Shown: piece by piece, positions 6,001 to 7,680 of the stretch | How positions within the stretch are numbered: the stretch's first letter is position 1 | How the letters are laid out: each line of letters begins with the position of its first letter | IMG/VR virus record: IMGVR_UViG_2671180366_000007 | Location: 1 to 7,680 of that record | Strand: one strand, 5' to 3' | DNA length: 7,680 bases | From: a virus | Taxonomy: Duplodnaviria; Heunggongvirae; Uroviricota; Caudoviricetes | Made by a program: the position numbers

Positions 6001-7680
6001 AAGGTGCCACGCTGGAGTTTTACGAAGCTGAGGCGAAAAAGCAGGCGAAGCAGTTTTTCATGGATGTTGCTGCCGGGTTATGTGAAGGGGATGGTCCGTT
6101 GCCGGAAAAGCGCCCCGTAATTTTAGAGGCGCAGGATGTGTTGATAACCTACAGAGGAAAACTACCGGGAATAATTACTGGTTCTCTGAAGACTCCACCG
6201 CTGGCCTGAAGACTTAACATATCCAGGGATTTGAAATCGATAAACCCTGATAAATATCCATGAACGCAAAAATCAGATACGGCCTGTCGGCTGCCGTTCT
6301 GGCGCTGATTGCCGCAGGTGCGCCTGCGCCTGACATTCTCGACCAGTTTCTGGATGAAAAGGAAGGTAACCACACCACGGCATACCGTGATGGTGCGGGT
6401 ATCTGGACCATCTGCCGTGGAGCCACCCGGGTGGATGGTAAGCCTGTCCTCCCGGGCATGAAGTTGTCGAAGGAAAAATGCGACCAGGTCAACGCCATTG
6501 AGCGTGATAAGGCGCTGGCATGGGTGGAGAAAAACATCAAAGTGCCATTGAGCGAACCCCAGAAAGCGGGGATCGCGTCATTCTGTCCGTACAACATTGG
6601 TCCCGGTAAGTGTTTCCCGTCGACGTTTTACAGACGAATTAATGCTGGTGATCGCAGGGGAGCATGTGAGGCGATTCGCTGGTGGATTAAGGACGGTGGC
6701 AGGGACTGCCGTATTCGCTCAAATAACTGTTACGGTCAGGTATCCCGTCGTGACCAGGAGAGCGCGCTGGCGTGCTGGGGAATCGACAGATAAGCAGAAT
6801 ATTTTGCTAATAAATGACGTTGGCCAAGGCGGACGGATAACACGAAATCCTGCGAACTGGCAAAATGTAAGTGAATAAAAGTAAAAACCCCGTTTGTTGG
6901 CAGCAAGCGGGGTTTTGTTTTTATGGCAGTAAGCTATGGGAGGCTGCCTTGATTGATTTTAGCAAACTGATTAGGGAGTTGCGACTCATGATTAGTCAAT
7001 TACCAAACTGGAAATTTTTGCTGGTCTGGAGCATCCCTTTTTTATGGGTAGTATCCCAGTTAATTGTGGCAATTAAGGGGTAGCTATGTCAGACAAACTC
7101 ATAACGCCGGCAAAGGTCCTGTGTGTGATTGTCGGTATTTCATTTTCACTAATGCTGGTTGCTCTTTTTCTGTCCCTCGCCTGGGTGATGTTGTCTTCGT
7201 CGGGGCTGCTGGGGTGACAGTGACTGATGACATCAGCAGAGCGCTGGCTTTTGCTATTAAGTGGGTGGCTGTTGGTATTGCTGTGTCTCCGATGCTGTAT
7301 GGGCTGGCAAAACTGGTCATTGCGCTGAAATCGTGAACTTTAAAAAGATGAGTGCTGAACTTATTCGGGCAATGGCATTTGCCATTCGTATTGTGGCCAT
7401 TGCTGTTCTGGTCTGGACAATCCGTTGGTGGTGATATGAACCGTGTTCTGTGTGTGGTGATTATTGTCCTGCTGGTAGCCTGTGGTGTGCTTAGTCTGGG
7501 GCTGAATCATTACCGTGATAACGCCATTACCTACAAAGCCCAGCGCGACAAAAATGTCAGAGAACTGAAGCTGGCGAACGCGGCAATTACTGACATGCAG
7601 ATGCGTCAGCGTGATGTTGCTGCGCTCGATGCAAAATACACGAAGGAGTTAGCTGATGCGAAAGCTGAAAATGATGCTCT

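Follow-up and report, generated by a model that had tools for sequence, protein, structure and literature searches.

We have analysed a stretch of 7,680 nucleotides (nt), positions 1 to 7,680 of the IMG/VR virus record IMGVR_UViG_2671180366_000007 (hereafter the window), which is the late-gene region of an Escherichia coli lambdoid prophage. Between its lysozyme gene R and its spanin gene Rz lies an array of four genuine genes, P1 to P4, which encode very small single-pass inner-membrane proteins of three families (P1; P2; P3/P4). These small genes are exchangeable cargo just upstream of Rz in Escherichia and Salmonella lambdoid prophages. The best explanation overall, to which we give a probability of about 0.45, is a membrane-peptide array whose first gene is controlled by an antisense RNA and which aids or times lysis. 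A first-pass annotation of this DNA had described the array and proposed roles for it in lysis; its observation was confirmed, and its interpretation was partly supported.

The stop codon of R (6793) and the start codon of Rz (7436) leave an interval of 642 nt. We verified the coordinates of the four consecutive plus-strand open reading frames (ORFs) reported in it, as well as the gaps of 2, 2, 11 and 1 nt that follow them. With the starts first proposed, they comprise 31 (P1, ATG 6988-7083), 43 (P2), 38 (P3, from GTG 7220) and 28 (P4) codons (Table 1), each adjoining the next and the last adjoining Rz. In 3000 shuffles, a chain of four such ORFs appeared 3 times. A transmembrane-like helix had been ascribed to each peptide, and each ORF indeed contains a single hydrophobic stretch, with 19-residue Kyte-Doolittle maxima of 1.9-2.9. 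The array had also been regarded as an insertion relative to the order in which R abuts Rz. Our comparison agrees with this: R directly adjoins Rz in the Qin prophage of K-12, a strain that has no homologue of the small genes and in which rrrQ abuts rzpQ, and at the 79 loci of other species with an R homologue the two genes are likewise mostly contiguous wherever Rz can be recognised. Because R abuts Rz elsewhere, the small genes are an insertion and dispensable for lysis as such.

All four ORFs matched PHROG families (6632, 4906 and 1115/4493/3246), each annotated as of unknown function, and the Prokaryotic Genome Annotation Pipeline (PGAP) and phage annotators label them hypothetical proteins with differing starts. 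To score selection, we counted substitutions on a minimum spanning tree of the distinct alleles from RefSeq and IMG/VR loci. An excess of synonymous changes in the annotated frame only was found for P2 (omega 0.54, P=0.001), P3 (omega ~0.17, P=7.5e-11) and P4 (omega 0.42, P=0.04), and P1 gave a dN/dS of 0.11 between two diverged relatives. The truncated P3 of the four-gene array has six of its seven polymorphic sites at third codon positions, and a comparison of E. coli and Salmonella P3 over codons 14-60 gave proportions of nonsynonymous and synonymous differences (pN and pS) of 0.12 and 0.58. The view that these are real genes rather than chance ORFs is thus borne out by the family matches of all four and by purifying selection in the annotated frame. 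Scans of all the peptides against Pfam and NCBIfam (E up to 1) gave no match, no peptide matched a Pfam holin, and PADLOC returned no known defence protein for them.

P1 had been given a start at ATG 6988. Its homologues in Escherichia, Salmonella, Providencia, Citrobacter, Enterobacter and Klebsiella are 44-45 amino acids (aa) long and carry the N-terminus M/V-(I/F)DFSKLIRELR, beginning 13 codons further upstream; the P1 of the window therefore starts at TTG 6949 and has 44 aa. The sequence GGGAGG stands 5 nt ahead of this TTG, and ATG 6988 is an internal Met conserved in the family (Met14). An invariant internal ATG with an upstream Shine-Dalgarno-like site is found in P1 (GGGAG-9-ATG) and also in P3 (GAGG-6-ATG; Met13 of full-length P3, loci L004 and L005), and many gene callers begin at it, giving 32-aa and 48-aa entries. 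The conserved internal ATG in P1 and P3 suggests that both long and short protein forms are possible. RefSeq annotates P1 as a hypothetical protein in some records only. P1-type ORFs lack annotation in several RefSeq E. coli genomes and in phage SPN3UB (L273 1463-1600, L091 1658-1795 and our hits H61-H65); the SPN3UB protein matched phrog_6632 at E=2.2e-23. Other records over-extend the ORF to 70 aa from GTG 6871, across the terminator described below.

Among the P2 matches listed, most complete homologues have 43 aa and 62-98% identity. P2 had been said to resemble the N-terminal membrane segment of Rz; no BLASTP alignment was found and the shuffle test gave p=0.10, so that the likeness is not above chance and an origin of P2 as a duplicate of the N-terminus of this i-spanin was rejected. 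On one contig, a frameshift near the P2 stop has produced a natural in-frame P2-P3 fusion, a two-helix protein of 83 aa (P0089).

P3 belongs to a 60-aa family with the pattern M-x-KYKRILLRLTMKNGLE...KS, whose full-length homologues occur in E. coli, E. marmotae and Salmonella. The 60-aa form matched PHROG at E=2.5e-41, and an AlphaFold2 model of it predicts a short N-terminal helix (residues 3-15) and a 35-residue helix (25-59). P4 has a 50-aa sister form, VRKYKRFFLRLSIMKGIE...IRWW, present in L006 and L272. The paralogy proposed for P3 and P4 was upheld: 9 of 20 aligned residues are identical, 6 of these 9 are encoded by different codons, and both peptides matched phrog_4493, phrog_1115 and phrog_3246. 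Neither is a complete gene of its family; both are 5'-shortened copies of a 50-60-aa family and lack its N-terminal 12-22 residues. P3 may start at GTG 7220 or, as called by PGAP, at TTG 7181. The Shine-Dalgarno site of Rz sits within the last codons of P4, and the P4-Rz junction ...CGTTGGTGGTGAtATG is shared with P1-type genes ending in RWW.

The first-pass annotation had also placed a bidirectional terminator between R and Rz, and a hairpin with a 5' A-run and a 3' T-run is present at 6884-6916. A terminator was called on the minus strand in the homologous locus L005. It is retained in all 13 diverse homologues compared; its stem varies, with 8 of 13 pairs showing double changes that compensate each other. 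In every context the hairpin has kept the A-run ahead of it that leftward termination needs. The first gene, whether P1 or full-length P3 or P4, is always preceded by this terminator, a leader of 25-30 nt and a strong Shine-Dalgarno site. Its start codon is GTG or TTG in the P1 family, in Salmonella-type P3 and in the long form of P4 (P4long), and ATG in the O157-type P3 of E. coli.

Within the first codons of P1, the minus strand carries an extended -10 element, TGCTAAAAT (6956-6964), and a -35 element, TCGCAA (6979-6984), with a spacing of 17 nt. The sequence TGCTA[A/T/G]A/TAT is retained in all P1 relatives while residues 2-5 vary (IDFS, NDIS, QYFS, NSS); in divergent relatives the hexamer is TAAAAT, TAATAT or TAGAAT with an upstream TG, the Ser codon is always AGC, and the critical -10 positions T1, A2 and T6 are kept despite the changed residues. 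P3 and P4long, which are unrelated to P1, have the minus-strand hexamer TATACT at the same place, ORF nt 8-13, and the promoter scan called full minus-strand promoters there (TAGTCA-18-TATACT and TGGACA-18-TATACT). A -10-like hexamer on the minus strand at ORF nt 8-13 was present in 174 of 174 first-gene loci surveyed, against a background of 0.3% at that position in 940 other ORF starts of the same loci. On reading of their sequences, P2, short P4, truncated P3 and ant, none of which ever comes first, are without the motif. Synonymous change is also reduced where the promoter would lie: pS is 0.25 over the P1 promoter element versus 0.67 downstream, and 0.07 over the P3 promoter footprint versus 0.58 beyond it. 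From these signals the first-gene module is predicted to give a minus-strand RNA of ~72-80 nt that runs from the start codon through the Shine-Dalgarno site to the terminator; its end-to-end length would be 74-81 nt in 172 of the 174 loci.

Three further features were observed around this module. An 8-codon mini-ORF (ATG xxx AGG GAG GTx xxT TCC CTG TGA) lies ~26 nt before the start of P3 or P4long in L257-L260, L006 and L272; the gene that follows has its Shine-Dalgarno site within the mini-ORF, and its GTG start overlaps with the mini-ORF stop. Salmonella and some E. coli loci have the mini-ORF; O157-type loci and the window do not. A second minus-strand promoter-like site, CTGACA-18-CACAAT with an upstream TG, is located at the P1/P2 junction (7063-7092), and a transcript from it would span all of P1 and reach the 6884-6916 terminator. 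As for a small second hairpin between the anti-Shine-Dalgarno stretch and the terminator, single-sequence folds differ in their stems and MAFFT did not bring them into register, and we make no claim about it.

The whole 647-nt stretch spanning the R stop to the Rz start is 100% identical in E. coli FORC_069, and at least 80% of it was found in 587 of 5,426 complete E. coli genomes. In the same genomes P1 was matched in 703 (13%), P2 in 1,532 (28%) and P3-type genes in 1,538 (28%), with maxima of 3, 5 and 7 copies per genome, respectively. In a sample chosen by P3 similarity the commonest arrangement was R-P3-P2-Rz, which is present in O157:H7; R-P3-P4-Rz, R-P4long-Rz, R-P1-P2-Rz and R-P3-Rz were also seen, as was R-P1-Rz in a record that leaves P1 unannotated. 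Stx (Shiga toxin) phages have R-ant-P2-Rz, among them Sp6 and Sp10 of Sakai and the O104:H4 phage P13374, a Stx2a phage in which P2 (ORF53) follows ant.

P2 and P3/P4 were found only directly ahead of Rz, and the Salmonella P3 homologues always lie ~10 nt before it. The lysis genes beside the latter include several lysozymes (PF00959 types and GH19) and holins of class I and class II. P1 relatives follow a GH19 endolysin in Enterobacter and a CHAP enzyme in Providencia; others are located in lambda-like tail clusters and in one myovirus baseplate cluster, and one stands alone amid ParE, RelB/YafQ and HicB modules. This shows that P1 moves as an autonomous unit. Since the contexts comprise varied lysis genes and regions other than lysis cassettes, the role specific to a pinholin and SAR (signal-arrest-release) endolysin that had been suggested is unlikely. 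The suggestion of a mosaic joint holds in part: the genes shuffle, and P3 and P4 of the window are 5'-truncated, but the ORFs are not remnants left by the decay of a single larger gene.

In the mechanism that we propose, the peptide genes would be read within the Q-antiterminated late transcript as it passes the 6884-6916 terminator, and the peptides would be translated by coupling. The first-gene module would comprise the bidirectional terminator, a short leader with its Shine-Dalgarno site, a usually non-ATG start and ~13 codons that double as a leftward promoter. Transcription from this promoter would cross the start site and stop at the same terminator, giving an antisense RNA of ~72 nt. 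In the lysogen, the antisense RNA would suppress stray translation of the membrane-active peptide and, through coupling, silence the downstream genes as well. After induction, Q-modified polymerase would pass the terminator, and massive late transcription would swamp the antisense RNA; the peptides would go into the inner membrane, where they would contribute to the disruption of the envelope or set its timing. A more specific proposal, which we regard as rather unlikely, is that the unit of terminator, leader and first gene represents a new type I toxin-antitoxin-like family (a small membrane peptide with a cis-antisense RNA of ~72 nt), mobile among the late operons of Enterobacterales phages; in lambdoid prophages of E. 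coli and Salmonella it would gate the translation of a variable series of membrane peptides and perhaps that of the spanins that follow.

Several observations weigh against an antisense-controlled array of this kind. The -35 element of P1 is weak, with 3 of 6 positions matched. AT-rich codons after starts are common and able to mimic a -10, and codons 1-13 of the first gene also hold the internal Shine-Dalgarno-ATG, which could explain part of the nucleotide constraint. No plus-strand promoter-like site was found in 5300-7680, and thus none in the window that would serve the peptides. The predicted RNA matched no Rfam family, and none of the EcOnc small RNAs (sRNAs; Hfq-bound, strain Sakai) that could be placed fell in an R-Rz interval, the two Sakai lysis cassettes inspected being both of the ant type. 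About 10% of the sampled P2 copies carry a frameshift, and 2 of 24 array haplotypes are disrupted. The P1-P3 block has 4-6 polymorphic sites per 100 nt versus 17-22 in its flanks (R, leader, Rz), and 690 of the 703 P1 copies are at least 99% identical; at such low diversity, selection on the P1 allele of the window itself is not measurable. The low diversity points to a recent spread of the block with recombination in the flanks. The peptides showed no similarity to Hok, Ldr, TisB, Ibs, ShoB, ZorO or DinQ (Pfam/NCBIfam, E up to 1). The earlier idea that they are toxin-like nonetheless draws support from the arrangement at the first gene, which resembles hok/sok.

Other explanations have to be set against the antisense-controlled array. 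The genes could be morons unrelated to lysis, coding for inner-membrane proteins that benefit the lysogen or the infected cell through superinfection exclusion or modulation of host membrane proteins and that use a permissive slot before Rz. Small single-pass exclusion proteins, for example gp15 of HK97, are classic morons, and the occurrence of P1 relatives in tail, baseplate and toxin-antitoxin settings agrees with such a role, as do the antirepressor gene that fills the slot in Stx phages and the dispensability for lysis indicated by the adjoining R and Rz of K-12 Qin and most other species. We nevertheless consider it unlikely, given that the stretch between R and P1 has no sigma-70-like forward promoter, that the terminator is upstream and not downstream of the genes, that coupling to Rz is tight, that P2 and P3/P4 were found only at the position directly before it, and that PADLOC gave no match. 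A second possibility, that the peptides are dedicated regulators of the pinholin and SAR endolysin, antiholin-like or releasin-like, binding the second transmembrane domain (TMD2) of the pinholin or the SAR helix, is quite improbable. The array does sit within an S21-type cassette, the releasin of Mu is reportedly a precedent for a small membrane regulator of SAR endolysins, and the P3 helix KWVAVGIAVSPMLYGL resembles the pinholin TMD2, including its GxxxS (BLASTP E=0.002; shuffle p=0.016). However, this p value and that for the SAR helix (0.028) are not significant once corrected for 15 comparisons, and P3 as a mimic of either helix was rejected except as a lead. P3 homologues also lie beside GH19 and other lysozymes and beside class I and other holins, and P1 beside GH19 or CHAP enzymes or in regions other than lysis cassettes.

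The signals in the first gene might alternatively be translational only, with a gene that has two starts, the second of them at Met13 or Met14 and yielding a shorter protein, and a hairpin that simply terminates the R transcript. Dual starts are a known device of holin genes, and the invariant internal ATG with GGGAG or GAGG 6-9 nt ahead, at which many gene callers place the 32-aa and 48-aa entries, is what such a gene would have. An internal ribosome-binding site accounts for ~12-15 nt, however, and not for the constraint on codons 3-8; the nucleotides kept as residues 2-5 change are T1, A2, T6 and the upstream TG, and the A-run for leftward termination is retained in every context. We therefore hold this reading to be very improbable. 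It is highly improbable that the ORFs are debris without function, left by recombination at a mosaic joint and open only by chance. The truncated P3 and P4 of the window, the frameshifted P2 and P3 copies, the fused P2-P3 and a low diversity consistent with recent spread would suit debris; frame-specific purifying selection, conservation of length and sequence across genera, conserved ribosome-binding sites, abutting stops and starts and the presence of the whole array in 587 genomes would not.

Of the complete E. coli genomes, 13-28% carry the genes concerned, frequently as multiple copies, and the genes are also found in the O157:H7 Stx phages and the O104:H4 outbreak phage. If the peptides are membrane-active and gated by RNA, they would add control over when Shiga-toxin phages lyse the host and release toxin and virions, and a new toxin/antisense-RNA family would join a short enterobacterial list. 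If the reading as a type I-like module is true, an RNA-controlled threshold step would be added to the lysis programme. For annotation, small genes are mis-started or missed here, and P1-type ORFs remain unannotated in SPN3UB and in many RefSeq genomes.

The gene order of the window is DNA methyltransferase, tRNA genes, STnc100, iraM on the minus strand, S21-type holin, YdfR/DUF1327, R and the start of Rz (Table 1). Between R and the terminator lies a conserved non-coding stretch (6794-6883), of which E. coli has 49 sequence variants and the Salmonella phage SPN3UB a version that is 69-76% identical; it is also present in the ant-type Stx phages, in which the terminator is absent. This ~90-nt stretch, whose core is GGATAACACGAAATCCTGCGAACTGGC, may be a 3' untranslated region element. 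An Rfam scan of both strands of the window (E up to 1) gave no match within 6794-7434. Some side observations concern the neighbourhood. The YdfR/DUF1327 gene is another unexplained passenger of the lysis cassette, and its counterpart in FORC_069 and G8 is an incomplete pseudogene according to RefSeq. In FORC_069 a SASA esterase gene of 1.85 kb separates iraM from the holin gene; it is missing from the window, which thus cannot derive over its full length from the prophage of that strain. A fifth family of small membrane ORFs (33-36 aa, motif ...GM.GWGWF...) lies between R and Rz in Enterobacter, Morganella and SPN3UB (L138/L139 3015-3134, L157/L158 2988-3137, L091 1391-1500); its start overlaps the R stop (ATGA), it matched phrog_14810 weakly, and it is unannotated in SPN3UB. 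Past the window end, Rz overlaps at its 3' end with a hydrophobic ORF of 50 aa (L001 8098-8250; phrog_11822, unknown function).

Table 1. Features of the window and of its R-Rz interval
Feature	Coordinates	Strand	Remarks
tRNA genes	3388-3460 and 3564-3637		Upstream of holin gene
STnc100 sRNA	4337-4526		132 bits; upstream of holin gene
iraM-like ORF	4552-4887	-	Upstream of holin gene
S21-type holin gene			Dual-start; upstream of YdfR/DUF1327 and R
YdfR/DUF1327 gene	5865-6209		Between holin and endolysin genes; Pfam E=1.7e-46
R, R21-type (SAR) lysozyme	6260-6793	+	177-aa ORF; RefSeq name 'lysozyme'; left border of insertion
Non-coding stretch just past R stop	6794-6883	+	Conserved
Predicted cis-antisense RNA, ~72 nt	6879-6951	-	Inferred; spans P1 start codon and Shine-Dalgarno site, ends at terminator
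Bidirectional intrinsic terminator	6884-6916	both	GC hairpin, A-run before, T-run after
P1, 44-aa single-pass membrane protein (phrog_6632)	6949-7083	+	TTG start; PHROG E=1.3e-12
Promoter-like element for predicted antisense RNA	6956-6984	-	Embedded in P1 codons 3-12
P2, 43-aa single-pass membrane protein (phrog_4906; WP_001280935)	7086-7217	+	PHROG E=4.5e-21
P3, 38-aa 5'-truncated copy of 60-aa family (phrog_1115/4493)	7220-7336	+	PGAP start TTG 7181 (WP_042004856)
P4, 28-aa short P3 paralogue (phrog_4493; WP_032159578)	7348-7434	+	PHROG E=5.8e-6
Rz (i-spanin), 5' part	7436-7680	+	By translation; RefSeq name 'lysis protein'; right border, continues past window end

Compared with known systems, the array was not placed in a known family of toxins, holins or spanins. 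As widespread annotated hypotheticals, the genes are in themselves ordinary; it is their combinatorial organisation and the conserved, predicted antisense-promoter/terminator module that are undescribed as far as could be found. Text searches found no paper that mentions the accessions, the PHROG identifiers or the peptide sequences, and a survey of the lysis cassettes of Stx phages makes no mention of the peptides (PMC8136144).

Like lambdoid morons such as gp15 of HK97, the array consists of mobile genes for small single-pass membrane proteins that lie between conserved late genes and vary in presence among close relatives. They are inserted between genes that are adjacent in related phages, as morons are, but neither a promoter of their own nor a downstream terminator was found for them. 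A classic moron has its promoter before the gene and its terminator after it, whereas in the array the terminator comes first, the window yielded no forward promoter, and no terminator separates P4 from Rz. One Citrobacter P1-type copy does have the classic promoter-terminator flanks. The peptides also recall the antiholins and releasin (S21-71, RI of T4, gp25 of Mu), which are likewise small membrane proteins with genes in lysis cassettes and which adjust the moment of envelope breach. Unlike these, they show no homology to them and no tie to one holin or endolysin type, and the cassette already has a dual-start S21-type holin.

The predicted RNA may be compared with HnrS and the anti-sRNAs of prophages of enterohaemorrhagic E. 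coli, which are 51-66 nt long, antisense to the late operon, located at moron sites, equipped with conserved intrinsic terminators and multicopy through polylysogeny (PMC4104026, PMC13502914). Identity with HnrS itself (66 nt) was rejected: in Sp10 of Sakai, HnrS (EcOnc11) is encoded on the strand opposite to Rz, ~75 nt downstream of that gene. AgvB, AsxR and the Pas sRNAs were rejected likewise, as they lie upstream of the holin gene. In contrast to HnrS and the anti-sRNAs, the RNA predicted here would overlap a coding start in cis, and it has no Rfam match. If the type I-like module exists, the RNA, with its anti-Shine-Dalgarno stretch and its multiple copies in polylysogens, might also act in trans as HnrS does.

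The layout proposed for the first gene is like that of hok/sok and of symE/symR. HokW of the Stx phage Sp5 is made on induction and located in the inner membrane, and without it only half as many phages are released (PMC8621323). As in hokW-sokW of Sp5, the product is a small hydrophobic membrane peptide borne by a prophage (here 28-44 aa with one hydrophobic stretch each), and a short antisense RNA (~65-75 nt), here a predicted one, would span the translation start, its promoter lying within the first codons of the reading frame. Some loci, like mok/hok, have an upstream mini-ORF whose stop overlaps the peptide start. The array differs from hok/sok in that its first gene stands inside the late operon, directly before Rz and with no promoter of its own in the window, and is followed by further coupled genes.

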